Assembly (NCBI GenBank): GCA_902546615.1
Contig: CACCKE010000003.1
Location: 17,837 to 81,836 of the forward strand
DNA: 64,000 nt
Direction: 5' to 3'
DNA from: an uncultured Pelagibacteraceae bacterium
Lineage (GTDB): Bacteria; Pseudomonadota; Alphaproteobacteria; Pelagibacterales; AG-422-B15
The position numbers were made by a program, and so were the translations under genes. Below are positions 6,645 to 23,939 of this stretch, one piece after another. How positions within the stretch are numbered: the stretch's first letter is position 1; every line of letters starts with the position of its first letter. The notes beneath the pieces are model-generated. The model did not search any database, was not told where the DNA came from, and worked only from the letters and a program-made list of their open reading frames with translations.

Positions 6645-8753
6645 CTAAAAACCACTTTCTCTGATTAATGTTGATGAAACCAAATTAAATAGATTTTGAA
6701 AAATATTATAGTTTTCAGTCTGAATTTTTACTTTACCTGCTGTTTGCCATTGAATAGTCTCAACTTCAGTACTTGTAGAAAAATTAAGCTGGTATAAAGC
6801 TTCTTCTGGTCGATAAATAACTTTTCCATCTCCCTTAACTTCACGTGATGCAATTGATCCACCAAAAGTGGGTACTAATGATAAGTAGGGAAGTTCTTCT
6901 GTCGATGTATTATTTTGTGAAACCAAGACAACTTCTGCTTCATCAAATTCATTATTTTTTGGAACAAAATAGCCACTAGTATTATCTTCAAGTTTATACA
7001 AATCATTTTCGCTTATGAATGCGACAACTTTTGTATCATTGAATTGAACAATAGAAAATAATTTTTCTTTTATATTCACCCACTGTCCATTATTTAAATA
7101 CTTAAGGTCTTTTATCACCCCACTCATTGGTGCATAAATTGATAGATTTTCATTTTCCTCTTTAAGACTTTTAAGAATTTCAAATTCTACTTTTAATTGA
7201 TTTTCTAATACCATGAGATTACTCATATCGGCCTCTGATCCAATTCGACGATCTAGTTTTTGCTGTATCATCTTTACGCGCTCAATTGCTTTATCAACTT
7301 TATTTGATAAAGACGGACTCATCATTGTAATTAATAAGTCACCCTTTTCGACTTGTTGATCTGAGATAACAAAAATCTCTTTTATCTCAGAGGCTTCTGT
7401 TGGATAGATATCGACCACTTCACCTCGATCAATCACCGCCGGAAGACTGAGTGAACTTCGCCATGGTACTAACATTGCTGCCAAAAATACTGAGAAAATA
7501 AAAATTGATCTCAAAGAAGTCCAGTTGAAACGCATGTACCTTCTAAGTCCCCACCACTGTTTAATTTCTCTCCAAATTGGTAGCAAAATGAACCAAACAA
7601 TCTCAATAATGAACAGAATGATGCCAAGAATTTTGAATGTTAAATAATAAACCAATAAGGCAATTCCAATAAATATGAAGAAGCGATATATCCATGTCAT
7701 CCAAGCGTAAATGATGAAAGTCCACCGTCTTTGACTCATGAGCTGTTCCGGTGGTTGGAATTTAAATCCAAAGATCCATTCTCTAATCTGCCATCGACCT
7801 AAAGCAAAAGAGCGCGGTTGAAGATTTTCCGCTCTAAGAAAATCTGAAAGCACATAATAACCGTCAAATCTCATAAATGGGCTGATATTAATAAGAAGTG
7901 ATGAAATCCAACTTGAAGTTGCAATAAAAAATGAAGCACTTTTGATAACACCTTCAGGGCTTACAGCCCAAACAAATGTAGCAAGAAGGGCCAGATGCAA
8001 TTCAGTCAGCATGCCAGCAAAATTAATCAGTAAGCGTTTTCTATGATCAGTTAATTTATACGCATCAGTAGTATCCGTGTATAAAAAAGGAAAGAAAACT
8101 AGCATTGCAAGACCAATTGAAGAAACTTTGCATTTATAATAAGTGGCAACATATGCGTGCCCAAGTTCGTGCAAGGCTTTCACAAAAACAATCGTTATAC
8201 CAAACAAAATCAATCCATTAACATTAAAGAAATAAGAAAATGTTGTTAAAAATGTTTCATAGTTTTGGATTGTTAAAAAAATACCAATGATCCCCAGAAT
8301 ATAAATTATAAGTCTGCTGGTTTGCGATCCAAGAAACAATGCAAAAGGCAAACTGTTTTCAAGACCATTTCCTGGTTTGAATAATGGAATTTTAAAGAAC
8401 AAATAATTATGAATAATTTTTAACAGCCAATGCTTGTTAAGTTTCTCTTTTTGAACAACTAAAGATTTAACTTCATCACCTGTTTTTTTTATAGTTAAAT
8501 TATTGAGATTTAGAAAACTGATAAATTCTTCAATCTCTTCTTGTGTAATAGACAGATTACTTTTTTTAATTTTTTCAATAAATTCTGTTGTCTCAATTCC
8601 ACTTGACCAATTTTTAAGAAGATCAAATGCTTTTTTATTTATTGAAAAGTATTTATTTCTTAATGAGTCATAAAGAAGCCACGACGCTGAACCGTCCTCT
8701 TTCTTTGGTCCCTCACTGAGTTTCAAATCTTGTCGGATAGACGGTACAATCAT
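6645..8753 (-). CDS. PqqD-like domain / peptidase M50 (site-2 protease) / HlyD-adaptor fusion protein
   Basis: 702 aa. The N-domain WLLYDSLRNKYFSINKKAFDLLKNW...EEIEEFISFL is PqqD-like. HELGH (8157..8171) and NISPFMRFDG (7860..7889) sit in a polytopic core. The C-terminus has lipoyl-hairpin, coiled-coil and barrel features (VEKGDLLITM ... IYAPMSGVIKDL). Confidence 0.75.
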   Translation of the reverse strand: MIVPSIRQDLKLSEGPKKEDGSASWLLYDSLRNKYFSINKKAFDLLKNWSSGIETTEFIEKIKKSNLSITQEEIEEFISFLNLNNLTIKKTGDEVKSLVVQKEKLNKHWLLKIIHNYLFFKIPLFKPGNGLENSLPFALFLGSQTSRLIIYILGIIGIFLTIQNYETFLTTFSYFFNVNGLILFGITIVFVKALHELGHAYVATYYKCKVSSIGLAMLVFFPFLYTDTTDAYKLTDHRKRLLINFAGMLTELHLALLATFVWAVSPEGVIKSASFFIATSSWISSLLINISPFMRFDGYYVLSDFLRAENLQPRSFALGRWQIREWIFGFKFQPPEQLMSQRRWTFIIYAWMTWIYRFFIFIGIALLVYYLTFKILGIILFIIEIVWFILLPIWREIKQWWGLRRYMRFNWTSLRSIFIFSVFLAAMLVPWRSSLSLPAVIDRGEVVDIYPTEASEIKEIFVISDQQVEKGDLLITMMSPSLSNKVDKAIERVKMIQQKLDRRIGSEADMSNLMVLENQLKVEFEILKSLKEENENLSIYAPMSGVIKDLKYLNNGQWVNIKEKLFSIVQFNDTKVVAFISENDLYKLEDNTSGYFVPKNNEFDEAEVVLVSQNNTSTEELPYLSLVPTFGGSIASREVKGDGKVIYRPEEALYQLNFSTSTEVETIQWQTAGKVKIQTENYNIFQNLFNLVSSTLIRESGF

Positions 8754-10091
8754 TTATATTCCTAAAAACTGTCTGCTGATATTGATTGGAACTCTGAAGA
8801 TATAATAAAAAAGAGATGTTCGATCTCCGTAAATCTTTGCTGATCCTCGTAGTCCAATACGCGGTGGCTCAATATTATCCTCAAGGCTAGCATGTATTTT
8901 ATAAGCTAAAATATTCTCAGCTGTTAATTCAGGTTTGTAAGAAGTTCTTAATATTTTTCCTTCAATTGAGCTTAGTGGACTGCTGTCTAAAAAAACCTTA
9001 ACTCTTGCTGATTTTTCAATAAAAAGTGAGTCTTTTGTTGGTAGGTAGATTAAGAACTCAATATCGTCTGAATTTGCAATCGTTAGTATCTTTTCACCTA
9101 TATTTACAGGACGACCTTGCCAATCAATAAAATCTTCAACAACAGCTACTCCCGAAACCTCCGCTTTGATAACAGAATATTTTAATTGTTCCTCGGCATA
9201 AGCAACTTGCTTTTTCTTCAACGCAACTTCAGTTGATAGTTCAACGAGCTTTGCTTTTGCCTCATCATTTGTAAATGAGGATTGTTTAGCCCTTAATAAT
9301 TCTGCTTCAGCGACTTCTAATTCTTGTAAGTTTATTTCGTATTGAGATTTAAAATTGAGATCGTCTAATTTTACAAGCTCCGTACCAATATCAACAGCAT
9401 CGTTTGTGTTAACTAATACTTTTTTCACTACACCATTCACTGGCGATGTAACAACTGACGGATTTTTGGCAATCACTTCAACTGGTGCAACAGCGGATAT
9501 ATTAATTGGCATAAACATTGCAAATGTGATTGCTGATAATATTAGCCACTTTAGCCAACCTGAGAAGATTCTACCAAAAAAGGATAAAATCGATCCTTGA
9601 GATAAAAATGAGTCCAATGCATGGCTGAATGTTTCAGCGATGTGCTGCAGCAGTTCTTTTTCTGTATTTGAAACTTTAGCAGATCGTACAATGACTAAAG
9701 AACCTAAATCACCCTTTGTTCTTGAAATTAATGGAACAACCATTAGTTCATTTGGAAAATTTTCAGGTAAGTCTAAATTTAAACCATCTTCTCTTAAATC
9801 ACTAATTGAAACTTCTGAAAAGACTCCCGTATCAACCTTCTTTTTATTTATTAATCTTTCAACAAACGTAACTGTCGGCGCTGTTCTATCAACAACTGAA
9901 ATATCAGAGATCGTTTGGACTTTCTGTCGACCTGTAGCAGTCTTTGTGAGAAAAAATAAAAAATTATAATCAACAACACTTCTTAACTCATTTGCACAAA
10001 CAAATCCGAGTTCGGATAAGTTTTCTGCTGTCCGAAATTTTTTCTCAAGAGTAATTAATCTTGCTATTTTTATTGAAGTATTATCATTCAA
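8754..10091 (-). CDS. HlyD-family membrane fusion protein with cytoplasmic N-terminal domain
   Basis: 445 aa. Soluble ~170-aa N-domain (possibly GAF-like, unverified), one TM helix (WLKWLILSAITFAMFMPI), and HlyD features (VTSPVNGVVKKVLVNTNDAVDIGTELVKLD, a long coiled coil, VIKAEVSGVAVVE). Abuts the next gene. Confidence 0.7.
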   Translation of the reverse strand: MNDNTSIKIARLITLEKKFRTAENLSELGFVCANELRSVVDYNFLFFLTKTATGRQKVQTISDISVVDRTAPTVTFVERLINKKKVDTGVFSEVSISDLREDGLNLDLPENFPNELMVVPLISRTKGDLGSLVIVRSAKVSNTEKELLQHIAETFSHALDSFLSQGSILSFFGRIFSGWLKWLILSAITFAMFMPINISAVAPVEVIAKNPSVVTSPVNGVVKKVLVNTNDAVDIGTELVKLDDLNFKSQYEINLQELEVAEAELLRAKQSSFTNDEAKAKLVELSTEVALKKKQVAYAEEQLKYSVIKAEVSGVAVVEDFIDWQGRPVNIGEKILTIANSDDIEFLIYLPTKDSLFIEKSARVKVFLDSSPLSSIEGKILRTSYKPELTAENILAYKIHASLEDNIEPPRIGLRGSAKIYGDRTSLFYYIFRVPINISRQFLGI

Positions 10092-10807
10092 AACGTTGCT
10101 GTCCCACTCATGCCTGGCAGTAATGTATCATAATTTTCATCAAATTTTGCAGTAATGTCGATGGTTTGGCTAACAGGATCAATATCAACGCCGATAGTAT
10201 GAATTTTAGCATTATATGTTTGCCCATTTTCATCAATGCTGATTTTCATTGGATAACCCTCATCGATCCAAGCCAGCCATTTACTTGAAACAATCAATTT
10301 GGCCTCAAGAATGCCAGAACCAATGATTTCGACCAATGGCTGCTGCCTTTCAATACTCTCAAACTCATTGACAAAAACTTTAGATACTTTGCCATCGTAA
10401 GGGGCTTTAATTATACATCGATCTGTATTGAGTTTGGCAATTTGTAATTCAGCTTCTGCACGCTTTACATCGATTTCTGATAACTGAACCTCATATTCAC
10501 CAATGGATCTCATCAAGGCAAGGTCTTGATTGCTCTTTAGAGTTACTCTTGCGCTCTCTAATTGTGCTTCAACAACTTTTCTTTGTTCTTCATAAAATGA
10601 ACAATCAAATTTAATTAAAATATCAAACTCTTTAAATTTAGATCCTTCATCAATTGGTATTGATTCAACTTTTGCAGCAAGTTCACTTGAGAGTGTTGCC
10701 TCTTCGGTTGCAGTTACTAAAACACGTGTGGAATATTCTTCTGCCAACAAATTATAAGGCAATAATATGCAGCACGCTGTTACCGCAAATGTTACAATTT
10801 TGTTCAT
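10088..10807 (-). CDS. periplasmic adaptor (HlyD/RND-MFP-like), signal-peptide form
   Basis: 239 aa with a signal peptide. Lipoyl-hairpin halves (AAKVESIPIDEGSKFKEFDILIKFD ... IIKAPYDGKVSKVFVNEFESIERQQPLVEI) flank a coiled coil. ATGA overlap with the downstream gene. Confidence 0.65.
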   Translation of the reverse strand: MNKIVTFAVTACCILLPYNLLAEEYSTRVLVTATEEATLSSELAAKVESIPIDEGSKFKEFDILIKFDCSFYEEQRKVVEAQLESARVTLKSNQDLALMRSIGEYEVQLSEIDVKRAEAELQIAKLNTDRCIIKAPYDGKVSKVFVNEFESIERQQPLVEIIGSGILEAKLIVSSKWLAWIDEGYPMKISIDENGQTYNAKIHTIGVDIDPVSQTIDITAKFDENYDTLLPGMSGTATF

Positions 10808-10818
10808 AAAGGTATTTA

Positions 10819-13800
10819 TTAACTTACTAGAGATACAATCTTTTCGCCATAGCTATCTGCTGCTTTAGCATGAAGCTTTAATTGTTCATCAAGTGGAATG
10901 AAAGAGATTTCATCGTTTGTTACAGAATTTTCACCATCTGACTCAGTTTCAGTTATTTCATTAAGATCAATCTCAACTTCAATAATTCTTTCTTTTCCAT
11001 CTTCGTCTTCAGCAATAATTTTCAGTTCAAGAACTTGAAGGCTTTCAGTTAAAAATGCTGGAGCTGCTGAGCCCGTTCTTCCTTTTGAAGGGTCCGCTGC
11101 AATTTTTCCAGTTTCTGGATCAATTGTAATCCAATCAGGTAATGCTCCACCACCTTTGAGCTCTGCTTTGTACATTTTTACATTTGATTGATTGTCATCA
11201 ATCACATCGACTGTAAATTGACCTGCATCCATTTGAAGGCTGCTTAATTTCATTGTGCCTTCAAAATCTGTTTGAGCGTTTAAATTATTATTTGCCGCAT
11301 TACTTGATGCATTGTTGTTCTCTCTAATCAAGTTTACATTCGAGTCATTATCAACAACTACTCTTGCCTGATCAACGGCTCCTCTTGTGAAGTCTTGGTC
11401 GCCTTTAATTTTAGCTTTATCTAAAACAATATTAATATCTCTGGTATTTCCGTCCTTATCAAGAGCAACTAATTGAACCTCAACCGCTTCAACACCTTCT
11501 GGCATATCAGCTGTTGTTTCTCCAGTTTCAGGATTGACTCTAATCCATTCAGGTAAAGCTTCACCGTTAGAGAGCTGTCCTGAATACAGCTCCACATTTT
11601 TCTGATTATCATCATTTAGTTTAACTCCAACTTTTAGATCAGATTCTGAATCGTCTGAAACTTCGTTCGCAACAGCATCCATTAACCTTAAACCGCCATT
11701 AAATTTTAACGGTTTTGAGAGAGAAGCGGTATCAGCAATTGAAACTGTATCAAGGGCAAAGCCATCATCACTGATTGCTGGCGCCTCAGTAATGGTCTCT
11801 TGAATAGCTGCTAAATAATCTTTCTTAGGTTTAATAACATTTGGTTTAGATGGAGGAGTTGGTTCTTCATCAGGTGTCTCTTTTTCAACGATTTCTCCTG
11901 GTTTGGGATTTACTGTAATTGTAAACGTATGATCAGCGTAAAGTCCCTCACCATCAATTGCTCTAATTGTAATTGTATAAGTTCCCGGTGTGTTAATGGT
12001 TCCATGCAGCTTATTTTGTTTTAATCTAAGACCCTCTGGAAGACTTGTCTCTGCACCACTTTCAGGATCAATAATTTTATATTCTGCAATATCATAAATA
12101 CCAGTATCCGGATCATCAAAAATCTGTTTGTGCTTAATAATGATCTGTTCCCCAACAACTAAATTTGGATCAACAACAGGGTATAATAGTTCAGGTGGAT
12201 CATTGATACCAGTCACAGTAATGGCTATCTGAGCTTCTACAGGCGTTTCTCCATCTGTTGCGGTATATGTGAAGTACTCCGTCTTACTTACACCAGGGTT
12301 TAAAGATTTTGCATTATTAGCCTTGTATTCATAGCTGCCATCAGAATTTATAGTTAAGTCACCATATGTTCCTGTTAGGGGTGATCCAATTGTCCCAGAT
12401 GTCCCCGTTCCAGCTTCTTCACCTGTTCGTATTGTATTTACAGTTAAACTGTCACCATCAGGGTCTGTATCATTCTTTAATACTCCTTTTGATGCATCTT
12501 TTACTCCAGTCGCACCTGCATCGATTTCTAAAATATCATCTTTTGGTACTGGCGGATCACTTTTACCAGTAACAGTTATTGCAATCACACCAATGTCTTC
12601 ATTTGTTCCATCTGTTACAGTATAGTTGAAATATTCTATTTTGCTCTCTCCTCTTTTAAGCGCATCTGCTGCAGCCTGATCAGCAACATAACTATAGCTT
12701 CCATCAGCATTAAGAGTAAGAGTACCGTAAGTTCCTAAAAGTCCTGAACCAAGTGTACCTGGGTCACCACCGCCTTCTGATTGCCCAAGTCTAATTCCAG
12801 AAATTGTTAATGACTCACCGTCTGCATCAGTATCGTCTGCGTTAAGCGCAAATGTTGTATTAGCCGCTCTCGTAATTGTCTCACCTTTAGGAACAGTATC
12901 AGTATCGTCAACGGCTACAGGATCATTATCGTTTATTCCTGTTACTGTGAATGTAAGATTTGCTGTTGACGTGGCAGTTCCATCACTCACCGTATACGTA
13001 AATGTATCTGTCCCAGTTTGACCTGTAATGAGTTGATCTGATTTTGTTTGATCAGCAACATAAGTGTACGATCCATTCGCATTCACTGTCAGAGTTCCAT
13101 ACTCACCTGTTAATGAAGCACCTACTGTACCGGTCTCACCTGTGCCATCCTTTGATCCCGTTCTGATACCAGTTATTGTAAAGTTTCCGCTCGTATCATC
13201 CCCATCAACATCCGTATCGTCATGATCTAATTCTTGAGTGTCACTTACTGTTCGACTAACGGTTGCATCCTCATTAACACTATCCGTGTCATCAACGGCA
13301 ACGATTGGGTCGTTTGCCCCATTTATGGTTACTGTAAGTGTTGCAGTGGATGAGTTTTTATCATCATCATCCTTTACAGTATATGTGAATACTTCAGTAA
13401 CAGAGTCACCTGCATCTAAGGCTTCAGCTGCAGCTGTATTTGCTATGTATGTATAACTTCCATCAGCTGCTAATGTTAATGTTCCGTAAGTACCTAAAAC
13501 CCCTGCATCTGCTGCACCGCTATTGCCTGTGCCGTTTGAGGAAACATTGGTAACCGCAAGACTTTCCGTATCTCCACCCGTATCGTTTGTTAATACTCCA
13601 CCTGCTGTATTAACTGTCAATGTCTGACTTTCAGTAGCAGTAGCTGTATCTGCTGAACCGACAGGACCTACACCTGTTACAGTGATAACCAAATTTGCTG
13701 TATCGGTTGTTCCAGCGCCATCACTTACGGTATAAGTGAATGTATCGGTTGCAGTTGCACCATGAGCTAACCCGTCAGCACCACTGGTATTGGCAGTATA

Positions 13801-16800
13801 TACATAGCTACCATCAGAAGCGAGCGTAAGGGTACCGTATGTTCCTGTTAACTCTTGACCGACTGTCCCTCCATTGACTCCTGAAACAGTTAAACTTGAA
13901 CTTGCATCAGCATCAGTATCATTAGATAAAACACCACTGCCAGCACTTATTGATACTTGCGCATCCTCATTAACAGCGCCTGTATCATTCACTCCAACAG
14001 GGTCGTCATCAATACCTTTTACGGTGAAGGTTATAGTTGCGGTGTCTGTTCCAGTTCCATCAGTTACTGTGTATGTGAACGTATCTGTTGCAATATCTCC
14101 TGCATCAAGAGCATTAGCATTGTTAACATTATAAACGTAGCTACCATTACTTTGTATTGTTAATTGACCATACGTTCCAGAGACTGCATTTCCGAGAGTG
14201 CCTCCTGCTATCGCAGAAACTGTTAGAGGGTCATTATCTGGATCAGTATCATTAAGGAGAACATCTCCTGAATGATCTCCACTTTCGTTATTATTATTAC
14301 TATCTGTTCCTGTTACTGCAGATGTGCCGTCAGTAACTTGAAGCTGAGAGTCCTCAAGGATATATCCTGTGTCATTATTTCCTGTGGGAGGAACCACAGT
14401 AGTTCCAGTTACTGTTATTGCTAGTTGTCCTGTATCAGTATCACCAGCTTGATCTGTTACAGTATATGTAAAGTAATCAACGACAGTTGCGTCATTAGCC
14501 AGACTAAGCGCATCAGGTCGATTGGCAGCGTAACTATACGATCCGTCTGCGTTGATCGTGACTGTTCCGTATGTTGTTGTAAATTCTTGGCCAAGAGTTT
14601 TTGTATCGCCACTACCTGTCTTTTGTCCAGTTCGTATCGCTGTAATAGTAAGACTACCTGGAACATCATCAGCGTCTGCATCTGTATCATCTTGATCAAG
14701 CTCTTGTGCATCGCTTGTACCTCTTGAGATTGATGCACCAGCATTTACCGCATCAGTATCATTAACGGCAGTAATATCATCGTTAATTCCAGTCACCGTA
14801 ATAGTTAACGTTGCAGTACTTGCATTTTTATCGGCATCATCTTTAAGAGTGTATGTAAATACATCAGTAACTTGATCACCTGGATCAAGGGCATCAGCAG
14901 CTGATTGGTTGGCAACATATTCATAGCTACCATCAGCCGCCATGGTTAATTCACCGTAAGTTCCAGTAACAGCTTGTGCAGCATTACCACTATTCCCAGT
15001 AACGCCGTGAGTGATGCCAGTTATAGCTAAACTTTCAACATCGTAGCTTGCATTGTCATCATCATTACTGATTACACCAGATGCTTCATTTACTGTTAAA
15101 GTAGCATCTTCATTGACTGAGCCAGTATCGGCAACAGCTTGAGGGCCTACACCTGTTACAGTGATGACTAAATCTGCTGTATCAGTTGTTCCAGCGCCAT
15201 CACTTACGGTATAAGTGAATGTATCGGTTGCCGTTGCATCAGCAGCGAGACCATCCTCACTTCTACCGTTTGCAACATAAGTATAGCTACCATCTGAATT
15301 CAATGTCAGAACACCATAGGTTCCGTTATGCGCTTGGCCAACTGTACCACCACCACCAATTGCAGATACAGTCAGACTTGAACTAGCATCAGCATCAGTA
15401 TCATTTGATAATACTCCGCTTCCCGCACTAACAGTTAGGGTTTTATCCTCGTTGATTGTACCTGCATCATTATTGCCAACTGGATTATCATCGACTCCGT
15501 TAACAGTGATTGTTAAGGTTGCTGTGCTTGAATTGACATCATCATCATCTTTAACTGTGTAAGTGAAGACATCAGTTTCAGAGTCACCGGCATCTAAGGC
15601 TTCAGCTGCAGCTGTGTTCGCCGTATAAGTATAAGTACCATCAGCTGCAACGGTCAGAGTACCATATGTACCTAAAACACCTTGAGTGGCGTTCCCACTA
15701 TTCCCTGTAGAGTCTGAGCTAATATTTGTAACAGCTAAACTCTCACTATCATAAGCAGCATTATCATCATCATTTGCCAGAACACCAGTTGAAGATGCAT
15801 TATTTGCATTTAGTGATGCATTTTCATTTACTGAAGCCGTATCGTTTACTCCTAAAGGGCCAACTCCTGTAACAGTTATTGCGAGTTCAGCGGTATCTGT
15901 ATCGTTTGGACTGCTTGTGTGATCTCTTACTGTATAGGTAAAGTAATCAATTGCTGTTGCGCCTGCCACTAATGCGTCTGCTCCACTTCTGGTTGCGGCA
16001 TAGCTATAGCTACCATCTGCAGCTACAGTTAATACACCATAAGTACCATTTAGAGCTTGACCTATTGTGCCCGTTGTTGTTCCACTAGTTGCAGACTCTC
16101 TTCCTGTTCTGATTGCAGTGATTGTAAAGCTTCCAGATACATCATCGGCATCAACATCTGTATCATCGTGATCTAATTCCTGAGAGTCTGAAGTACTTCT
16201 ATTGATTGTTGCATCTTCATTCACAGCGTCTGCATCATTTGAAGCTATAATAGGATCGTTCACTCCTGTGATTGTTATTTCCAGCGTTGCGGTATCTGTA
16301 TCGGTTTGGTCAGTTACTGTGTATGTAAATGTATCTGTTACTGTATCACCAGGATCTAGTGCGTCAGCTGCATCTTTATTTGCATTGTATGTATAGCTAC
16401 CATCTGCACTCATAGTTAACTGTCCATAGGTGCCATCTAGAGCTGATCCAAGAGATCCACCAGATATTGCACTTACTTCAAGCGAGTCTCCGTCAGCATC
16501 TGTATCGTTTGCTAAAACTCCGCTGCCAGCAGTTACTGAAACGCTAGCATCCTCATTAACGGCTCCGGTGTCGTTGTTACCAACTGGAGCTTCGTTTGCG
16601 ACTGGAGCCCTGGTAATGATACGAATAAAGTCACCTTTCTCACCATTTTTAGTACCAATTCTAATCGTCTTGTTGCCATTTGATATTGCAAACCAGTCTT
16701 TATTCCCTTCTTCACCCGGAGGATTTTCATTCTTGTATTCCAACTCCCTCTTACCAATTTTATCTGAACTCAATGTTGGATAAATTCCGCCATCCATTGA

Positions 16801-17859
16801 AACCCCAGTCATTTCAATCAAATTTTCAGGTTCCGCAAATACGCCAAGTATTTCATATTCAAAAGTTACTTCACCTACTCGACTACCAGTTCGTCTAGAG
16901 TTACTATTAGTGTCATCATTAGAGAAAAGTAAATATACATGAACAGGCTCACTCGTACTTGGTGTATGTGAGCTCTTTGCTCCAGAAACATCGAAGTTTA
17001 GGGCCCCTGTCCCGCTACTTACACCTGCTCTTTCTTGGACTATTATAAATCGATCTGAAGAAGAATCCTGTACTCCATTGTTATTAGAACTATCAGTAGT
17101 AACTTGTGCCCTAAAGTTGGTTGCAGAAGAAGAAAGGTTTACAACACTTGAGTTGATGGAAGTTATATCGTTAGCAAGCGAATAATCGTAATTTGCAACA
17201 TCAATATTTTTTGTCTCGATGATGCCTGTATGTTTCTCCAAAACCCAGTCACCACCCTTACCAGTGACATCGTCTGACGCTGCTACATCAGCGTCAGTAA
17301 TTTCAGCAATTTGCTTGATTAAAATCTCACCGCTTTCATCTGCTGCAATATTACAACCATAGAATAAGATATCACCATCAGCACTGAGGCTTGCGCCAAT
17401 GTCTTTTAAAGTGTGCGCGTACTCGTTTAATGTTTCACTGTTTAGAGTCGCAACACCAAATGCAATCTGACCAATGCTACCGTGACCAATAACATGAATG
17501 CCATCAATGTTTTTTTCATCAGCAAGAATATTTTGCATTTCTTTAAAACCATCCACATCACTTTGAATGATGTAAACTTCTGTGTTGTCATCAAAACTTT
17601 CAACTAAGACTTCGATATCATCAACTGCACTGTCAATGAAGACGAATTGTTTTGTTCGTATGTTTTGATTAGTACTTTCACGATTTACAAATGGAAGTTT
17701 TGTATCTTGGTCGGTTTTAAAATTATTTTCTTTTAGTTTTTTATCTAAATCAGTTTTATTCGTATTTGCTAAATCATCAATGGTATCAATTGCAGTTGCA
17801 ACTGCAGCTCCATCGAGCATCATGCGTGGTTCTAGTGCCTGAATTAGTTTTTTGGTCAT
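10819..17859 (-). CDS. giant repeat protein: N-terminal DUF4347-like domain, 12 VCBS/cadherin-like modules, C-terminal putative-Ig/dystroglycan-type modules
   Basis: 2346-aa uninterrupted ORF. N-terminus reads ALEPRMMLDGAAVATA, followed by the DUF4347 pattern (FVFIDSAV..IHVIGHGS..ILFYGCN..TDADVAASDDVTGKGGDWVLE). Twelve ~110-130-aa modules end in FTYTV.D....T..L.ITVTG(V/I)ND.P. Confidence 0.9.
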   Translation of the reverse strand: MTKKLIQALEPRMMLDGAAVATAIDTIDDLANTNKTDLDKKLKENNFKTDQDTKLPFVNRESTNQNIRTKQFVFIDSAVDDIEVLVESFDDNTEVYIIQSDVDGFKEMQNILADEKNIDGIHVIGHGSIGQIAFGVATLNSETLNEYAHTLKDIGASLSADGDILFYGCNIAADESGEILIKQIAEITDADVAASDDVTGKGGDWVLEKHTGIIETKNIDVANYDYSLANDITSINSSVVNLSSSATNFRAQVTTDSSNNNGVQDSSSDRFIIVQERAGVSSGTGALNFDVSGAKSSHTPSTSEPVHVYLLFSNDDTNSNSRRTGSRVGEVTFEYEILGVFAEPENLIEMTGVSMDGGIYPTLSSDKIGKRELEYKNENPPGEEGNKDWFAISNGNKTIRIGTKNGEKGDFIRIITRAPVANEAPVGNNDTGAVNEDASVSVTAGSGVLANDTDADGDSLEVSAISGGSLGSALDGTYGQLTMSADGSYTYNANKDAADALDPGDTVTDTFTYTVTDQTDTDTATLEITITGVNDPIIASNDADAVNEDATINRSTSDSQELDHDDTDVDADDVSGSFTITAIRTGRESATSGTTTGTIGQALNGTYGVLTVAADGSYSYAATRSGADALVAGATAIDYFTYTVRDHTSSPNDTDTAELAITVTGVGPLGVNDTASVNENASLNANNASSTGVLANDDDNAAYDSESLAVTNISSDSTGNSGNATQGVLGTYGTLTVAADGTYTYTANTAAAEALDAGDSETDVFTYTVKDDDDVNSSTATLTITVNGVDDNPVGNNDAGTINEDKTLTVSAGSGVLSNDTDADASSSLTVSAIGGGGTVGQAHNGTYGVLTLNSDGSYTYVANGRSEDGLAADATATDTFTYTVSDGAGTTDTADLVITVTGVGPQAVADTGSVNEDATLTVNEASGVISNDDDNASYDVESLAITGITHGVTGNSGNAAQAVTGTYGELTMAADGSYEYVANQSAADALDPGDQVTDVFTYTLKDDADKNASTATLTITVTGINDDITAVNDTDAVNAGASISRGTSDAQELDQDDTDADADDVPGSLTITAIRTGQKTGSGDTKTLGQEFTTTYGTVTINADGSYSYAANRPDALSLANDATVVDYFTYTVTDQAGDTDTGQLAITVTGTTVVPPTGNNDTGYILEDSQLQVTDGTSAVTGTDSNNNNESGDHSGDVLLNDTDPDNDPLTVSAIAGGTLGNAVSGTYGQLTIQSNGSYVYNVNNANALDAGDIATDTFTYTVTDGTGTDTATITFTVKGIDDDPVGVNDTGAVNEDAQVSISAGSGVLSNDTDADASSSLTVSGVNGGTVGQELTGTYGTLTLASDGSYVYTANTSGADGLAHGATATDTFTYTVSDGAGTTDTANLVITVTGVGPVGSADTATATESQTLTVNTAGGVLTNDTGGDTESLAVTNVSSNGTGNSGAADAGVLGTYGTLTLAADGSYTYIANTAAAEALDAGDSVTEVFTYTVKDDDDKNSSTATLTVTINGANDPIVAVDDTDSVNEDATVSRTVSDTQELDHDDTDVDGDDTSGNFTITGIRTGSKDGTGETGTVGASLTGEYGTLTVNANGSYTYVADQTKSDQLITGQTGTDTFTYTVSDGTATSTANLTFTVTGINDNDPVAVDDTDTVPKGETITRAANTTFALNADDTDADGESLTISGIRLGQSEGGGDPGTLGSGLLGTYGTLTLNADGSYSYVADQAAADALKRGESKIEYFNYTVTDGTNEDIGVIAITVTGKSDPPVPKDDILEIDAGATGVKDASKGVLKNDTDPDGDSLTVNTIRTGEEAGTGTSGTIGSPLTGTYGDLTINSDGSYEYKANNAKSLNPGVSKTEYFTYTATDGETPVEAQIAITVTGINDPPELLYPVVDPNLVVGEQIIIKHKQIFDDPDTGIYDIAEYKIIDPESGAETSLPEGLRLKQNKLHGTINTPGTYTITIRAIDGEGLYADHTFTITVNPKPGEIVEKETPDEEPTPPSKPNVIKPKKDYLAAIQETITEAPAISDDGFALDTVSIADTASLSKPLKFNGGLRLMDAVANEVSDDSESDLKVGVKLNDDNQKNVELYSGQLSNGEALPEWIRVNPETGETTADMPEGVEAVEVQLVALDKDGNTRDINIVLDKAKIKGDQDFTRGAVDQARVVVDNDSNVNLIRENNNASSNAANNNLNAQTDFEGTMKLSSLQMDAGQFTVDVIDDNQSNVKMYKAELKGGGALPDWITIDPETGKIAADPSKGRTGSAAPAFLTESLQVLELKIIAEDEDGKERIIEVEIDLNEITETESDGENSVTNDEISFIPLDEQLKLHAKAADSYGEKIVSLVS
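12250..16600 (-). repeat. in-frame tandem coding repeats (12 modules in three sequence types, partly as ~493-codon super-repeats)
   Basis: A 47-bp identical run at 13706..13752 and 15185..15231 has offset 1479 bp = 493 codons. A 25-bp identical run starts at 13413 and 15591. The module order read from the protein is A-C-B-A-B-C-A-A-B-C-C-x. Confidence 0.85.
17230..17652 (-). other. DUF4347-like domain of the giant protein
   Basis: Covers aa ~70-210. Conserved His126 (codon 17482..17484) in IGHGS and Cys169 (codon 17353..17355) in FYGCN. Confidence 0.6.
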
Positions 17860-18019
17860 GTTAATTTATATAAATAAAATTTAGTAATTTATTGATAAAT
17901 ATACCTTTTCTATATACAGCAGAAATGTTACCAGATGTAGCAGGATCGAAAAAAAAACCCAAAATGGGCGGTTATGTGTATACTGAAATTATTAAAGTTT
18001 GGTATTACTTGCGCCTGAT

Positions 18020-18038
18020 ACTGTAAGTCGATTACAGT
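18020..18038. promoter_or_regulatory. inverted repeat in divergent control region
   Basis: ACTGTAA-gtcga-TTACAGT, 30 bp upstream of the TolC-like ATG. Confidence 0.2.
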
Positions 18039-18067
18039 GTATCTGATATTTTTAAAAAACATTTTTA

Positions 18068-20869
18068 ATGGTCTACCTTATAAAAAAATTATTAATAGTT
18101 TTCATATGTTTGGCGCTCGTTGCTTGTGCGCGATCTCCAAGAATAATTGATGCAGAGTCATTAAGCGTTTCTATTGCTGAAGAGATTGCCGAACTTGAAG
18201 TTAAAGCATCATTTCAAAATATTGACTTACATACTGCAATCGCAATTGCTGTCAGAAACAATCGTGATTTAAGGTTAAGCGTTATGGAATCTGCTCTATC
18301 ACAGAGTCAAAGAGACTTGCAAAAATTTGATATGCTTCCTGACATAGCACTCAGCGCTGGTTATTCTGAGTTTACGGAACTTCAGCCTTCTACAAGTAAA
18401 ACAGTTGCATCAGATGACAGTGTTGCACCGTCAATTGATGGAACAGAAGGCTACACTATTTCTAGGGATAAAGGTCAGGCGACAAGGGGTATTGAATTTA
18501 CTTGGAATGCACTAGACTTTGGACTTTCATACATTAGGGCAGGACAACAGGCGGATAGATATTTAATTGCGAAGGAACTTGAGAGAAAGGCTATTCAAAA
18601 TATTACTAGAGATATTATCAGGTCATACTGGAAAGCCCAAGCATCAGAAAATCTCCTTAAAAAACTTAATCCGCTCCTTAAGAGAGTTGAAGACGCATTA
18701 GCAGACTCTCAATACATTGAAGAACTTTTAATTTCGGCCCCGATGGATTCTTTACTTTATCAAAAAGAATTACTTGATGTACAGCGAACACTTCAAACAC
18801 AACAACGCGCTCTCATAAATTCAAAAAACGAGTTAGCATCATTAATGGGTCTGCTTCCTAGTGAAAAGTTTACGCTCGCTGAGAATGATACATATTTAAC
18901 AAACCTTAATATGGATATTCAAGCTATGGAGGAAATAGCACTTCTTTCAAGACCTGAACTTATGGAGAGTCGATATCAAAAAAGAATTACAAGTAAAGAT
19001 ACAAGGGCGGCCATGTTAGCACTTATACCAAGCTTAAAATTTAATGCAGCATATGGGTACACAAATAATGATTACTTATTAAATCAAGATACAACAGAGT
19101 ATGGAGCATCAATCGGTGGTAATCTATTTGATATATTCTCAATAGGAGTGACAAGAAAAGCTACGAAAGCAAATCAAGAGCTTATTGCCGAAAGACATCT
19201 TGCTATAGCCATGACAGTGCTCTCTCAGGTTCACTTGTCGAATATAAACTATGACCTAGCTATTGAGGAATATGATACAGCGCAAAGATATTTAGATGTC
19301 GCTAAAAGAATAAGTAAACAAGTCCAAAATGCACAGAAAGTCTCAAGATTTGGTGAGCTAGAAGTTATCAGAGAAGAAGCAAGTCTTTTAGTTGCAGAGC
19401 TTAGAAAAGATTTAGCCTTCTCAGAAATGCAGCACAGCATTGGTCAAATATATGCATCAATTGGTAAAGACATTTTACCTGCAGATCATCAAAATCTATC
19501 AATTCAGGACTTAAGTAATAGCATAAAAGCCAATTTAGTTGAGTGGGGCGTAACTTATCAAGCAGCGGTTAATATTCCTTTGAATGATCAAAACCCACAA
19601 CTGCTAGTGATCACAGACCCAATTAATACAAAACAATCAAGCAACAAATTTAAGATATCTAAAGATACATTTAATATCTCTGGTCCAGGTAAATTAAGAT
19701 ACTCGGTAACACAAGAAGACGGCAGTGACTTGCCTCGATGGCTTGCATTCCTAACTTCGGACTTATCGATAGTTGGTAACCCGCCCGAAAATGTATCAGG
19801 CATAAAACTAAAGATCTCAGTTGCTAATGCTTTGGTTTCAGCGGAAGATCAATTTATTCTGAACTTTGTTGATGAGGAAACATTCTTAGCAAATGAAAGT
19901 CAAAAGGCAAGAGAAGAACTTGCGCGTATGACGAGGTTAAGTAATGAGGATGAAATTTTAACGGATGAAGAAGTAGAGGTAGCTTCAGTTGAAACTGTTG
20001 TAGACGAAGATCAAATTGAAGCAGAAGTAACTACATCTGAGCCAATTGAGGCAGAATATGAATTCAGCAATGTATCAGCTGAGGAACTAAATGAACTTCT
20101 AGACTCGGTTGATGAGTTGCTTGAGGGGTCGCTAAAAGAACTAAATAACGAAGCAGACTCATTGCAATTTAATAATCAGATTTTTGATGAAAGTGTCAAT
20201 GCCAATAGCGATGAGGAAGTCGTAACTGAAGATGTAACAACTGCTGATACAGGTGAAGAAAATAACATTCTGCCAACCAAAAAAATTATTCAAGAAAACG
20301 AAAAGCTTCAAGCTAACAATGAGCAACTTCTCTCTGAGGCGGATGAAGCAAAAGAAGAATTAGCTCAATTGATTGAAGAAAATAAACAAAAAGAGTTAGA
20401 AGAAAAAGCTGCTCAAGAAGCACTTGAAGAAAAGTTAGCTAAAGAGGCTGAAGAAGCTTTAGAAAATTTAAATGAACTTGTCGATACAAGTATTGATACT
20501 GAAACTAATTCTTTCAGTGCTCAAGCAAGTGAAGTGCCAGCTGAAACTGACAATGATCTTTCAGAAAGTTCATCAAATGCAGAGTATGCTTATATTAAGA
20601 TCGGGTCATATACACGAGGAAACTCGGCGAATAGCTTGATGAATTACATATACGATTTAATGGGCTTTGATACTCGTTTCCTCAAATATGATATTAATGT
20701 TGAAAAATTTGATAAAAATGACTTCTCAGTAGTGATCGGCCCAGTTCCTATGGTTGAGGCTAAATCGATGTTAGAAGAACTTGATACTCAATTAAGTTCA
20801 GAGAATAGCTCAATTGTTGACGCTGAGCTTACTTGTAATGAAGAAGTCATTCTAATGTGTTCAATTTAA
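18068..20869 (+). CDS. TolC-family outer-membrane lipoprotein with ~450-aa C-terminal extension (cadherin-like module, acidic coiled-coil region, SPOR-like domain)
   Basis: Lipobox LALVAC. OEP-type start LHTAIAIAVRNNRDLRL..FDMLPDIALSAGYS and two coiled-coil repeats run to about aa 480. These are followed by LPRWLAFLTSDLSIVGNPPENVSG, an E/D-rich region and a C-terminal SPOR-like fold. Confidence 0.8.
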   Translation: MVYLIKKLLIVFICLALVACARSPRIIDAESLSVSIAEEIAELEVKASFQNIDLHTAIAIAVRNNRDLRLSVMESALSQSQRDLQKFDMLPDIALSAGYSEFTELQPSTSKTVASDDSVAPSIDGTEGYTISRDKGQATRGIEFTWNALDFGLSYIRAGQQADRYLIAKELERKAIQNITRDIIRSYWKAQASENLLKKLNPLLKRVEDALADSQYIEELLISAPMDSLLYQKELLDVQRTLQTQQRALINSKNELASLMGLLPSEKFTLAENDTYLTNLNMDIQAMEEIALLSRPELMESRYQKRITSKDTRAAMLALIPSLKFNAAYGYTNNDYLLNQDTTEYGASIGGNLFDIFSIGVTRKATKANQELIAERHLAIAMTVLSQVHLSNINYDLAIEEYDTAQRYLDVAKRISKQVQNAQKVSRFGELEVIREEASLLVAELRKDLAFSEMQHSIGQIYASIGKDILPADHQNLSIQDLSNSIKANLVEWGVTYQAAVNIPLNDQNPQLLVITDPINTKQSSNKFKISKDTFNISGPGKLRYSVTQEDGSDLPRWLAFLTSDLSIVGNPPENVSGIKLKISVANALVSAEDQFILNFVDEETFLANESQKAREELARMTRLSNEDEILTDEEVEVASVETVVDEDQIEAEVTTSEPIEAEYEFSNVSAEELNELLDSVDELLEGSLKELNNEADSLQFNNQIFDESVNANSDEEVVTEDVTTADTGEENNILPTKKIIQENEKLQANNEQLLSEADEAKEELAQLIEENKQKELEEKAAQEALEEKLAKEAEEALENLNELVDTSIDTETNSFSAQASEVPAETDNDLSESSSNAEYAYIKIGSYTRGNSANSLMNYIYDLMGFDTRFLKYDINVEKFDKNDFSVVIGPVPMVEAKSMLEELDTQLSSENSSIVDAELTCNEEVILMCSI
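20578..20830 (+). other. SPOR-like peptidoglycan-binding domain at the TolC C-terminus
   Basis: YAYIKIGSYTRGNSANSLMNYIYDLMG...DFSVVIGPVPMVEAKSMLEEL follows the SPOR pattern (y.vQ.Gaf....A..l...l......yrV.vGPf....A). Confidence 0.5.
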
Positions 20870-21927
20870 CTCGTTAAATCCTCATAAATATTAAAATAAA
20901 AGTTCATCATTTCAGTAAAAGTTAATTCTTTAAATTTTAAAAAAATATCAACTTCTCCATTGAGTTTTGGATAATTAACCCGATAAATATTTCTGCCTTT
21001 TTTTTCAAGATGTTTTAATTCAATTAATTTCTTACTAGATCGCCTTACAGTTTCACGCGGCATTTTTGCTGCCTCAGAAATCGAAGATAGATTTGTTGGA
21101 AGAAGATGTCCACTCTCATAAAGATCTTCAATAGAATTATATTTTAATATACCGTGTCTATTTTTAAAATATACTGCAGCTGAAAGTATGATGCGGTCAT
21201 TAGGTAAAAGTGATTGATCGCTTCCTTCCAAAGTAAGAATTCTTACCCAGAAGTGATATAAATGTAATCGTACTCTGTTCCATTTAGGCTGAGAAAATTT
21301 TTTTGTATTGATTGAAGTTAGAGGCTTTAAATTGAAATTGATTTTAAAATAATCTTCAAGATTTATTATAAAATCATTCAAAGAGCGCATTACTGATTTA
21401 TAAATATTACTTAATGAATTAGTAAATATATACGCTTGATAAGCGTCAAAATTTACAAGATATCCATATTTTGAATCCTTAGTTATTAAATCACTTTCTA
21501 AAACTGAATTTAAGTATCTTCTCATACTTTCTTTTGGAATATTGAAATGAGTTGAAAGTGAACTGATAGTAATTTTTTTGCCAATGAATTGGGTAAATGA
21601 TGACTGATAAATTGAATTATTAAGAAAATCTTCTGGATGCATTGCTAAAATTTCTTTTCTATGTTCTTTGAATAAATCTTCATCGTGGTATGCATTTGTA
21701 AATGAAAAAAGTATTATAAAAGACAAAATAGCGATTACCTCATCTTGCAGTCTTTGATCTTTTGTAATCCAATCTGTTGGGCTGTCTTCCCAATCAGACG
21801 GTTCGTGAATAAATAGATTTTGATGACGAGAAAGTTGAATTAACAATAAGAGTGCAAGTTGGTCATTGTCCAACTTTAAGGTGTGCTCAATGACAGAGTC
21901 TCGAATTTTTTTTAAATTAGGATCCAT
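20866..21927 (-). CDS. putative transcriptional regulator with two winged-helix-like segments
   Basis: 353 aa. Two HTH-like stretches: LSTHFNIPKESMRRYLNSVLESDLITKDSKYGYLVN and ISEAAKMPRETVRRSSKKLIELKHLEKKGRNIYRVN. Its stop region overlaps the TolC-like stop by 4 nt (convergent). Confidence 0.45.
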   Translation of the reverse strand: MDPNLKKIRDSVIEHTLKLDNDQLALLLLIQLSRHQNLFIHEPSDWEDSPTDWITKDQRLQDEVIAILSFIILFSFTNAYHDEDLFKEHRKEILAMHPEDFLNNSIYQSSFTQFIGKKITISSLSTHFNIPKESMRRYLNSVLESDLITKDSKYGYLVNFDAYQAYIFTNSLSNIYKSVMRSLNDFIINLEDYFKINFNLKPLTSINTKKFSQPKWNRVRLHLYHFWVRILTLEGSDQSLLPNDRIILSAAVYFKNRHGILKYNSIEDLYESGHLLPTNLSSISEAAKMPRETVRRSSKKLIELKHLEKKGRNIYRVNYPKLNGEVDIFLKFKELTFTEMMNFYFNIYEDLTS

Positions 21928-21996: not shown

Positions 21997-23337
21997 ATGC
22001 TGCGCATAATTCTCTCCATGGTAAAAAGCTTAGAAAAAATCGCAAAGCAAAAGAAAATCAAATATTTCCTAGTCACATTTGTTGATCTTTTTGGAGTGCA
22101 AAGGGCAAAACTCGTACCAACTCGAGCTATTGGAGAAATGCAAAAAACAGGTGCGGGCTTTGGAGGATTTGCAACACATTTGGATCTTTCATTTTCTGAA
22201 CCCGATATGTTTGCTTTGCCTGATCCAGATAGCCTTATTCAATTACCTTGGCAACCTGATGTTGGCTGGTTAGCAAGTGACCTAGTCATGAATGATAAAT
22301 TTATGGACCAATGTCCTCGTGTGATTTTAAAAAATCAGATTAACAATCTAGATAAATTGAACCTTCAAATGATGACTGGCGTTGAATGCGAATTTTTCAT
22401 TTTAAATGAAGATGGTACCGAAGTTGCTGACAATCGTGATGATGCCCTAAAACCTTGCTATGATGTTGCTGCTTTGATGAGACGCTTTGATGTCTTGAGT
22501 GAAATTTGTGACTCTATGATTAAATTAGGTTGGAAGCCTTATCAAAATGACCATGAAGATGCAAATGGTCAGTTTGAAATGAATTGGGATTTTACAGATT
22601 GTCTCACAACTGCAGATCGTCACGTGTTCTTTAAGTTTATGGTAAAATCAATTGCTGAAAAGCATGGATTGAGAGCAACGTTCATGCCTAAACCATTTAC
22701 TCAACTGACAGGTAATGGTTGTCATGCTCATGTGTCAGTATGGGATAAAAAAAAGAAAAAAAACTTATTTCAGGATTCTTCTGATCAACTAGGTCTATCA
22801 AAAATGGGTTATCAATTCATTGGCGGTATTATGAAATCAGTAGACTCTTTTGCTGCATGGCTAAATCCGTGTTTAAACAGTTATGAACGATTAAATGCAA
22901 AAACAACAAACTCCGGTTCAACTTATTCTCCAACTGCTGTGACGTACTCAGGAAATAACCGTACACATATGATACGAATTCCAGATGAAGGACGATTTGA
23001 ATTTAGAGCTGCAGATGGTGCTGTAAACCCTTACCTGCTTCAATCAGGAATTATAGCAATGGGTCTCGATGGAATAATAAACAATCGCAGCCCCGGAAAA
23101 CGTCTTGATATAAACATGTATACTCAGGGTCACAAACTAAAAAGGGTGAAAAAACTACCTAACAGTTTAGAGCAAGCTATAAAAAAGTTTAGCAATGACA
23201 CAACTGTTAAAAAGTCAATCGGCGCAAAAGTTGTCTCGAAGTACGTAAAATTGAAGAAACGTGAATTAAAAGAATTTAGTCAAGTAAGTGAAGCAAACAA
23301 AGCGAGCTGGATGCGTAAAAATATAATTGATTGTTAA
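21997..23337 (+). CDS. glutamine synthetase family protein (GlnA-like; possibly a gamma-glutamyl-amine synthetase)
   Basis: GS beta-grasp start (FVDLFGVQRAKLVP) and catalytic-domain motifs (NGCHAHVSVW, NSYERL, NRTHMIRIP). An alternative start at 22018 (MVKSLEK) is plausible. Confidence 0.85.
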   Translation: MLRIILSMVKSLEKIAKQKKIKYFLVTFVDLFGVQRAKLVPTRAIGEMQKTGAGFGGFATHLDLSFSEPDMFALPDPDSLIQLPWQPDVGWLASDLVMNDKFMDQCPRVILKNQINNLDKLNLQMMTGVECEFFILNEDGTEVADNRDDALKPCYDVAALMRRFDVLSEICDSMIKLGWKPYQNDHEDANGQFEMNWDFTDCLTTADRHVFFKFMVKSIAEKHGLRATFMPKPFTQLTGNGCHAHVSVWDKKKKKNLFQDSSDQLGLSKMGYQFIGGIMKSVDSFAAWLNPCLNSYERLNAKTTNSGSTYSPTAVTYSGNNRTHMIRIPDEGRFEFRAADGAVNPYLLQSGIIAMGLDGIINNRSPGKRLDINMYTQGHKLKRVKKLPNSLEQAIKKFSNDTTVKKSIGAKVVSKYVKLKKRELKEFSQVSEANKASWMRKNIIDC

Positions 23338-23339
23338 AG

Positions 23340-23939
23340 TTATTTTGTGCCTAGAACAGTGGCTACCAAGTGAATTCTATCTTCTTCTCCACCATTAATA
23401 GCTGTATGATATTTAGTGTTATCAGTTAAATAAATGTTTCCATCAGCAGGAATGTGATGACCAGTATGTTCTATGAACATTCGAGCTCCGTAATTGGTTT
23501 TGATTGCAATATGAAGTCTCCTTTCAGGATCTCTATGCCAGCTTAAAGTGGTTCTTGGTGGCATTTTAATCACACGACATCTGCCTATTTCAAAAAACTC
23601 ATTTATTTTTTCATATACATACTTAAAGTAAGTATTGTTTAATTTTGGGTTAAAGAGCGTGTACCTTGTTTCATCAATGTATGGCTCCCGCTCCATTTCT
23701 TCAAATGAAGAGTCTGGTTTTGTCCAATATTTACCCCTAATATTACCTCCAAACCATTCATCCAGCTCTTTCTCATCGTAATTAAGGCAAATAGCATTTG
23801 ACTTAAGCATGCCTGGCTTTTGTTCGGAATTTTCAAAAGGTCTGATCTTGACTAAATCGCTAACAGCTTCATTTAATTTTTCAACGTCAAATGAGATATT
23901 CTCAAGCCTTTCAATATATTGATTAATTGGTGTGTACAT
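23340..23939 (-). CDS. aspartyl/asparaginyl beta-hydroxylase-like 2OG-Fe(II) oxygenase (cupin)
   Basis: WHRDPERRLHIAIKTNYGARMFIE...YHTAINGGEEDRIHLV fits the HxD...H facial triad and family pattern. Confidence 0.5.
   Translation of the reverse strand: MYTPINQYIERLENISFDVEKLNEAVSDLVKIRPFENSEQKPGMLKSNAICLNYDEKELDEWFGGNIRGKYWTKPDSSFEEMEREPYIDETRYTLFNPKLNNTYFKYVYEKINEFFEIGRCRVIKMPPRTTLSWHRDPERRLHIAIKTNYGARMFIEHTGHHIPADGNIYLTDNTKYHTAINGGEEDRIHLVATVLGTK

Follow-up and report, generated by a model that had tools for sequence, protein, structure and literature searches.

Does an outer-membrane channel of the TolC family carry its own anchor to the cell wall? The question is raised by a single gene in a 64,000-nucleotide stretch of DNA (the window) from an uncultured Pelagibacteraceae bacterium (GenBank assembly GCA_902546615.1, contig CACCKE010000003.1). 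The encoded protein has a TolC-family core followed by a C-terminal extension of ~450 amino acids (aa), which a preliminary description, made from the letters alone, had divided into an Ig-like module, a charged spacer and a SPOR-like terminal domain. SPOR domains bind peptide-free glycan strands, which are enriched at the septum. Here we describe the conservation of this fusion, the descent of its terminal domain and the gene cluster in which it lies. In the reading we prefer, to which we assign a probability of roughly 0.55, a conserved TolC channel with a SPOR-derived tail ties an export machine for a giant protein to the cell wall.

We began from the integrity of the gene itself, as the preliminary description had cautioned that a frameshift or an assembly error might have joined two separate genes. 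We searched 5.8 billion protein clusters and obtained more than 100 full-length homologues (910–978 aa, 57–100% identity); those with a name bear no other than ‘outer membrane protein TolC’ or ‘TolC family protein’. When one genome per species was scanned, 38 loci emerged, all in Pelagibacteraceae or related alphaproteobacterial single-cell genomes and metagenome-assembled genomes, and 32 of these loci hold complete window-type open reading frames (ORFs) of 904–997 aa. The architecture is uninterrupted in these 32 ORFs and in three complete ORFs of a second, SPOR-type form, all from independent single-cell genomes. Regional identities, calculated as pairwise means over a 21-sequence alignment, are given in Table 1; this alignment reads as three folded modules connected by a linker that tolerates change. 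Because the full-length homologues come from independent single-cell genomes and metagenomes, we reject a frameshift or misassembly that fused a TolC gene with a separate downstream gene. We found no support for such an artefact beyond the extension being unusual for TolC. The same architecture recurs in the window-type and SPOR-type ORFs and in the database clusters, with zero indels in the three folded parts, and we put the chance of an artefact close to nil. The gene is thus one and not two, and TolC-family protein, Ig-like domain, spacer and terminal alpha/beta domain share one ORF at the coordinates that the preliminary description had given.

The descent of the terminal domain is best read from its relatives. 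The more distant orthologues L033 and L034 (~61–62% identity in the core) and L036 (44%) consist of OEP core, He_PIG domain and spacer, and end in a domain that Pfam recognizes as SPOR, at 25.1, 23.0 and 25.3 bits, respectively (cut-off 21). L036-type sequences form a large and abundant clade of their own. Across these sister clades, SPOR was matched in 10 of 10 C-termini (23.0–29.7 bits; best E-value 8e-7), with endings such as ‘SAYIQIGAF...VMYRILVGP...’. A profile built from the sister clades (A3) picks up the known SPOR structures of RlpA, CwlC and DedD; when it was used to search for further TolC–SPOR fusions, only fragments of the same family were returned. As the sister-clade orthologues carry Pfam SPOR at the same position, sequence comparison indicates that the C-terminal domain of the window protein is very probably SPOR-derived.

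Profile comparison points the same way. Aligned with hhalign, the window-type profile (A2) and SPOR profile A3 match over 63 columns (P = 0.0018), and A2 and the SPOR domain of E. coli FtsN, whose sequence was checked against 1UTA, match over 56 columns at 30% identity (P = 0.0015). The two alignments have an identical register, in which ‘YIKIGSY’ of the window type pairs with ‘FIQIGAF’ and ‘MVQCGSF’, and ‘SVVIGPVP’ is matched by ‘RILVGPE’ and ‘RVVIGPVK’. None of 400 column-shuffled controls attained the score of 22.3 (shuffle mean 11, standard deviation 2.2–2.5, maximum 20.1). In a neighbour-joining tree of the OEP and Ig region, the window type is monophyletic, L033/L034 form its sister group and the L036 clade branches deeper. 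Because the tree nests the window type among canonical-SPOR lineages, the simplest history is one in which the ancestor had a canonical SPOR domain and the window-type domain is derived from it. Taken together, sister clades, aligned profiles and shuffles make it very probable that the domain called SPOR-like in the preliminary description is SPOR by descent; direct detection by Pfam, PDB or Foldseek failed.

Members of the family also exist without the tail. Short relatives of 617–660 aa (P0243, P0236 and P0239) end right after the Ig domain, which they retain, and have neither spacer nor SPOR domain. The tree puts P0243 and P0236 within the canonical-SPOR clade, a placement which suggests that the short forms reflect secondary loss of spacer and SPOR domain. 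The gene for P0243 (locus L042, positions 10001–11983) is still divergent from that of a DUF4347 giant protein.

In RlpA, three elements hold the glycan: the conserved beta1 glutamine Q270, the main chain of a G-A-F segment and a patch of arginines, R309 of beta3 among them. Q270 contacts the MurNAc lactyl group, the beta3 basic residue forms a carboxylate-binding patch, and the corresponding Gln and Ala/Ser residues are important in FtsN and DamX (PMC6895207). The sister clades L033, L034 and L036 keep both the Gln and the Arg, and on this sequence evidence binding of denuded peptidoglycan by their SPOR domains is well founded. In the window clade the two positions are occupied by Lys844 and Ser887. 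As the sister clades retain both residues and the window clade has replaced them, peptidoglycan binding by the diverged domain of the window protein is plausible but not assured. The window clade has kept the G-S-Y and V-I-G-P motifs. It has also gained an insertion of ~10 residues between beta2 and beta3, and a C-terminal hairpin that carries a pair of cysteines absent from the canonical-SPOR orthologues.

The channel itself is readily assigned. Pfam OEP matched the protein at 111.3 bits (cut-off 22, E-value 6.2e-32) in two stretches, in agreement with the preliminary placement of the end of the core near aa 480. The scores lie far below the cut-offs of the curated NCBIfam outer membrane factor subfamilies, namely NodT-type TIGR01845 (41.7 versus 210.05) and type I secretion TIGR01844 (26.5 versus 225.15), neither of which was reached; the window protein represents a divergent outer membrane factor lineage. 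Residues Cys20, Ala21 and Arg22 are invariant among the homologues (alignment A1), and the lipoprotein profile LPAM_1 matched the L036 orthologue below threshold (18.1 bits against a cut-off of 20, E-value 0.0037). One hydrophobic segment lies at the N-terminus and no further membrane-spanning segment follows the OEP core. According to a review of tripartite systems (PMC8277102), TolC-family channels have their C-terminus in the periplasmic equatorial domain, which is variable and has been linked to contacts with adaptors; this agrees with the periplasmic position that the preliminary description had assumed. From this placement, and the lack of a membrane-spanning segment after the core, we infer that the tail is periplasmic. 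An AlphaFold2 (AF2) monomer model of the full-length protein (21-sequence alignment) reached a predicted local distance difference test (pLDDT) score of 42 and was used for secondary structure only. A promoter and terminator scan of positions 17700–21100 found nothing above chance.

The Ig-like module is equally direct. He_PIG (PF05345) scored 26.3–27.1 bits in the window protein, above the Pfam gathering score of 24, and 27.9 bits in L036. The peptide that the preliminary description had quoted for a cadherin/dystroglycan-type module, LPRWLAFLTSDLSIVGNPPENVSGIKLKISV, falls within this domain, and the assignment is borne out.

The spacer is less easily classified. Between aa 601 and 838, Asp and Glu make up 30% of residues and Lys and Arg 5.9%, for a net charge of −58. 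The preliminary description had called this region E/D/K-rich and probably coiled-coil: its acidity is confirmed, its supposed lysine richness is not, and a coiled coil is not established by its weak heptads. Helices were predicted at 603–627, 671–694 and 747–804 in the poor full-length model, covering less than half of the spacer. Only helix 747–804 reaches a pLDDT of ~70–77, and in its best heptad register hydrophobic residues fill only 47% of the a/d positions. A trimeric coiled coil is conceivable. The spacer is probably a flexible tether, since its variable length, its indels and its extreme acidity fit that role. SPOR proteins such as FtsN, DamX and DedD generally have such a linker between anchor and SPOR domain. 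In the L033/L034 clade (L033, 9818–12442; L034, 3112–5511) the spacer is instead a perfect E/R/L/A repeat (‘EELRIAEEELRLAEEE...’) that suggests a coiled-coil or single-alpha-helix motif and differs strongly from the spacer of the window. By this comparison of sequences, spacer chemistry differs between clades and module order is constant.

What does the channel serve? The strict pairing with a giant-protein gene, together with a HlyD/HlyD/M50-HlyD gene cluster, is the strongest context for the channel and was absent from the preliminary description. In every locus that holds the flank, the giant gene adjoins the TolC gene divergently, the L036 type (44% identical) and the short form without a tail being no exceptions. 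Wherever the sequence reaches, the genes for the two HlyD-type adaptors and the M50-HlyD fusion come after the giant gene. Past M50-HlyD, an ABC/ABC-2 pair is found in near-identical relatives only, and urease or Ldh_2/DMSP-lyase genes are found elsewhere. Because the genes past M50-HlyD differ between lineages, the conserved unit is five genes (window 6645–20869), without an ABC, RND or MFS transporter. The ABC/ABC-2 pair of the window (4876–6560) was considered as the pump of the system and rejected, being adjacent only in near-identical relatives.

The giant protein begins with a LEPR-XLL motif (‘LEPRMMLDGA’; NCBIfam LEPR-8K, 17.2 bits against a cut-off of 17), followed by DUF4347, about 12 Cadherin_4/Big_9 repeats and He_PIG-type ‘G..LP.WI’ modules near the C-terminus. 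Its relatives range from 1835 to more than 3400 aa. In the giant protein we found no Sec-like signal, transmembrane segment, RTX GGxGxD motif or HemolysinCabind Pfam match. The M50-HlyD fusion has intact HExxH (residue 195) and NxxPxxxxDG (residue 289) motifs and at least five transmembrane-like segments. Its closest NCBIfam similarity, below the cut-off, is to the daptide intramembrane metalloprotease; an exact look-up of the window’s M50-HlyD protein returned no record. This fusion may process the LEPR-XLL head of the giant protein. The 445-aa HlyD-type adaptor has a presumably cytoplasmic N-terminal region of ~175 aa, with no family assignment, before its single transmembrane segment, unusual for a periplasmic adaptor.

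Further genes flank the TolC gene on its other side. A 353-aa ORF (20866–21927, reverse strand) is convergent with the TolC gene and overlaps its end by 4 nucleotides; it matches no Pfam family and shows only faint similarities to helix-turn-helix regulators. It is syntenic in the window-type clade (54–97% identity) and absent beside the L033 and L036 types. Beyond it lie a small Asp/Asn beta-hydroxylase-like gene (23340–23939, reverse strand) and a glutamine-synthetase-family gene (21997–23337, forward strand); the latter is syntenic in the majority of window-type loci and appears ordinary.

Table 1. Features of the extended TolC-family gene and its conserved cluster, with positions in the window.
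Feature	Position	Strand	Basis	Mean identity	Indels or length
Extended TolC-family lipoprotein gene	18068..20869	+	Single uninterrupted ORF, 933 aa + stop codon		
Lipoprotein signal peptide, lipobox L-V-A-C	18068..18127	+	Read from sequence; Cys20 invariant		
Outer-membrane-factor core, two OEP repeats, ~aa 54–470	18227..19477	+	Pfam OEP PF02321	87%	Indels none
He_PIG/dystroglycan-type cadherin-like Ig domain, aa 512–596	19601..19855	+	Pfam PF05345	78%	Indels none
Acidic spacer, aa 601–838 (238 aa), variable length	19868..20581	+	Partly helical by model	43%	Length 215–284 aa
Conserved C-terminal alpha/beta domain, aa 839–933 (95 aa)	20582..20866	+	Read as diverged SPOR + added hairpin	77%	Indels none
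Lys844, at SPOR beta1 Gln position (FtsN Q251, RlpA Q270)	20597..20599	+	Alignments; nearly invariant in A2		
Ser887, at SPOR beta3 Arg position (FtsN R285, RlpA R309)	20726..20728	+	Alignments; invariant in A2		
Invariant pair Cys923 + Cys931, clade-specific C-terminal tail	20834..20860	+	Invariant columns in A1, A2		
Giant protein, 2346 aa, presumed cargo	10819..17859	-	LEPR-XLL, DUF4347, cadherin-like/Big_9 (Pfam, NCBIfam)		
Small HlyD-type periplasmic adaptor, 239 aa	10088..10807	-	Pfam HlyD_3, HlyD_D23; TIGR01730 105.8 vs 94.9; syntenic		
HlyD-type adaptor, 445 aa, one transmembrane segment	8754..10091	-	Syntenic		
Polytopic peptidase-M50-like domain + HlyD adaptor fusion, 702 aa	6645..8753	-	Pfam Peptidase_M50 + HlyD; syntenic		

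How might these parts work together? In our preferred reading, the TolC-family protein would be the dedicated outer-membrane channel of the five-gene cluster, a lipoprotein trimer. Each chain would leave the channel at the periplasmic equatorial domain and continue as Ig domain, acidic spacer and SPOR-derived domain, giving three tails per channel. The Ig domain would sit at or near the equatorial belt, a constant add-on kept even in the short forms. With the acidic spacer as its tether, the terminal SPOR-type domain would reach peptidoglycan and hold on to it, and the giant-protein machine would thereby be fixed to the wall. Because SPOR domains recognize peptide-free glycan enriched at the septum, the channel might also be recruited there, and by analogy the tail could favour division sites, and so new poles, as the places where the machine is installed. 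In sum, we infer wall binding by the diverged domain, septal targeting and the role of the giant protein as cargo.

Several results weigh against this reading. Pfam SPOR was absent at E-values up to 10, whether the query was the full protein, its tail or the domain by itself, and at its gathering score of 21 bits it matched 0 of 12 window-clade members; Csa3 matches near E 0.5 in these direct searches were dismissed as spurious. A PDB sequence profile search with the domain found no SPOR chain. Run against 1.84 billion sequences (one representative per 50%-identity cluster of ~15 billion proteins), the domain profile retrieved only its own family and no bridge to others, a repeat protein (P0123) being dismissed as spurious. 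The AF2 model of the domain (12-sequence alignment), of moderate confidence only at pLDDT 70, has a beta-alpha-beta-beta-alpha-beta order plus an extra C-terminal beta-hairpin; this order is the SPOR/RNP topology and is found in many ferredoxin-like domains too. In the PDB, Foldseek matched generic ferredoxin-like folds only, with no SPOR in the top 50 and nothing at all at E ≤ 1e-3. The profile alignments are support and not proof, because hhalign’s own probability is only 15–16%. The Gln and beta3 Arg that serve denuded-glycan binding in RlpA and FtsN are replaced clade-wide, and the ~238-aa spacer is far longer than needed to span from the equatorial domain to the wall. Finally, the SPOR tail is dispensable for core function, since the 617–660-aa relatives keep the Ig domain and the giant neighbour without spacer and SPOR domain.

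These points can be read in more than one way. The domain might be unrelated to SPOR, the ancestral SPOR domain having been swapped for another small ferredoxin-like domain whose similarity reflects fold and composition. Its lack of any Pfam or PDB sequence match, its orphan status among the representatives, the generic Foldseek results and the low hhalign probability would all fit such a swap, and continuity of descent cannot be traced through the spacer because the spacer is unalignable between clades. We nevertheless regard a swap as quite improbable. Two independent profile comparisons, with the orthologous SPOR domain and with FtsN, gave the same register at P ~0.002, and none of the 400 shuffles reached the score. 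The domain holds the same terminal position in orthologues with the same neighbours, and in FtsN the G-S-[YF] motif of beta1 and the V-[VI]-I-G-P-V motif that follows beta3 are the same. A surface-displayed tail, with Ig-like and terminal domains that bind external ligands, would suit the He_PIG/cadherin-like Ig domains, which are typical of surface proteins and are present in the neighbouring giant protein. It is very hard to reconcile with a TolC-family C-terminus that ends in the periplasmic equatorial domain (PMC8277102), with the lack of an extra membrane-spanning segment after the core, and with sister clades that end in SPOR, a periplasmic wall-binding domain; we consider display very improbable.

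A doubtful but more substantial alternative accepts SPOR descent and holds that the domain has been re-tasked. It would no longer bind peptidoglycan and would instead bind a protein partner, the tail acting as an assembly or retention strap; candidate partners are one of the three HlyD-type adaptors or the periplasmic part of the giant protein. The window clade has fixed K844 in place of Q and S887 in place of R, both at critical residues (PMC6895207), and has a new, clade-specific tail with the invariant Cys923 and Cys931. The 77% identity of the domain reflects strong constraint, and the domain therefore does something specific. The C-terminal He_PIG-type ‘LPxWI’ modules of the giant protein also weakly resemble the Ig domain of the TolC protein (E-value 0.12). 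Against a change of task, the partners are still only candidates, a lysine can still contact the lactyl carboxylate, and a basic patch could be re-formed by the invariant basic residues R850, R870 and K873. The domain has likewise kept G-S-Y and V-I-G-P, the motifs that give the SPOR sheet its shape. On balance, we favour a tail that still holds the wall.

We then compared the window protein with known systems. With outer membrane factors of the OprM/NodT lipoprotein type it has in common the two OEP repeats, a lipobox cysteine and HlyD-type adaptors encoded nearby; it differs from them by the extra C-terminal extension of ~450 aa. The accessible portion of the review of outer membrane factors and tripartite systems makes no mention of wall-binding add-ons on outer membrane factors (PMC8277102). 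With the SPOR proteins FtsN, DamX, DedD and RlpA (PF05036) it shares a long low-complexity linker followed by a C-terminal domain, predicted in the window protein to have the beta-alpha-beta-beta-alpha-beta order. RlpA, too, is an outer-membrane lipoprotein, one whose C-terminal domain is SPOR, and FtsN has the G-S-[YF] and V-I-G-P-V motifs in common with the window type. Unlike these proteins, the window protein has as its anchor a TolC channel, not a transmembrane helix or a lytic transglycosylase, and its clade has Lys and Ser for Gln and Arg, the beta2–beta3 insertion and the Cys hairpin.

A secretin offers a parallel in design. The AMIN domains of PilQ bind septal peptidoglycan, so that the type IVa pilus machine is already installed where poles will form (PMC5285504). 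The window protein would follow the same logic, as an outer-membrane channel with a module for septal peptidoglycan. The two differ in channel (secretin versus TolC), in module (AMIN versus SPOR) and in its position (N-terminal versus C-terminal). For the cluster as a whole, the type I secretion system LapA/LapBCE offers a giant Ig/cadherin-repeat protein with a dedicated TolC-like channel and HlyD-type adaptors. In contrast to that system, the window cluster has no conserved ABC transporter, its presumed cargo lacks RTX GGxGxD repeats and has an N-terminal LEPR-XLL/DUF4347 head, and its inner-membrane component is an M50-type metalloprotease–HlyD fusion. With neither ABC transporter nor RTX cargo, the cluster is not a classical type I secretion system.

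Each of the parts, OEP, He_PIG and SPOR, is of a known kind; their combination is uncharacterized. Our literature search found no description of a TolC–SPOR fusion, of this SAR11 protein or cluster, or of an M50-HlyD fusion, which agrees with the preliminary remark that TolC–SPOR fusions are not known to have been characterized. A bolder proposal, which we think unlikely as a whole, is that the cluster encodes an undescribed, ABC-independent export or anchoring machine for giant LEPR-XLL/DUF4347 proteins, with an active M50-HlyD inner-membrane component, in which the SPOR-type tail installs the machine at the septum and the giant protein is deployed at new SAR11 poles.

TolC-family exit ducts are usually treated as bare, passively positioned channels. 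If our preferred reading is true, some bacteria anchor, and possibly spatially target, a TolC-based machine via a peptidoglycan-binding module, in a fusion conserved across abundant marine Pelagibacteraceae. The family offers three natural states for comparison: a canonical SPOR domain, a diverged SPOR domain with Lys and Ser, and no tail at all. The conserved cluster, which lacks any recognizable pump, may be a separate means by which the ocean’s most abundant bacteria handle giant surface proteins.

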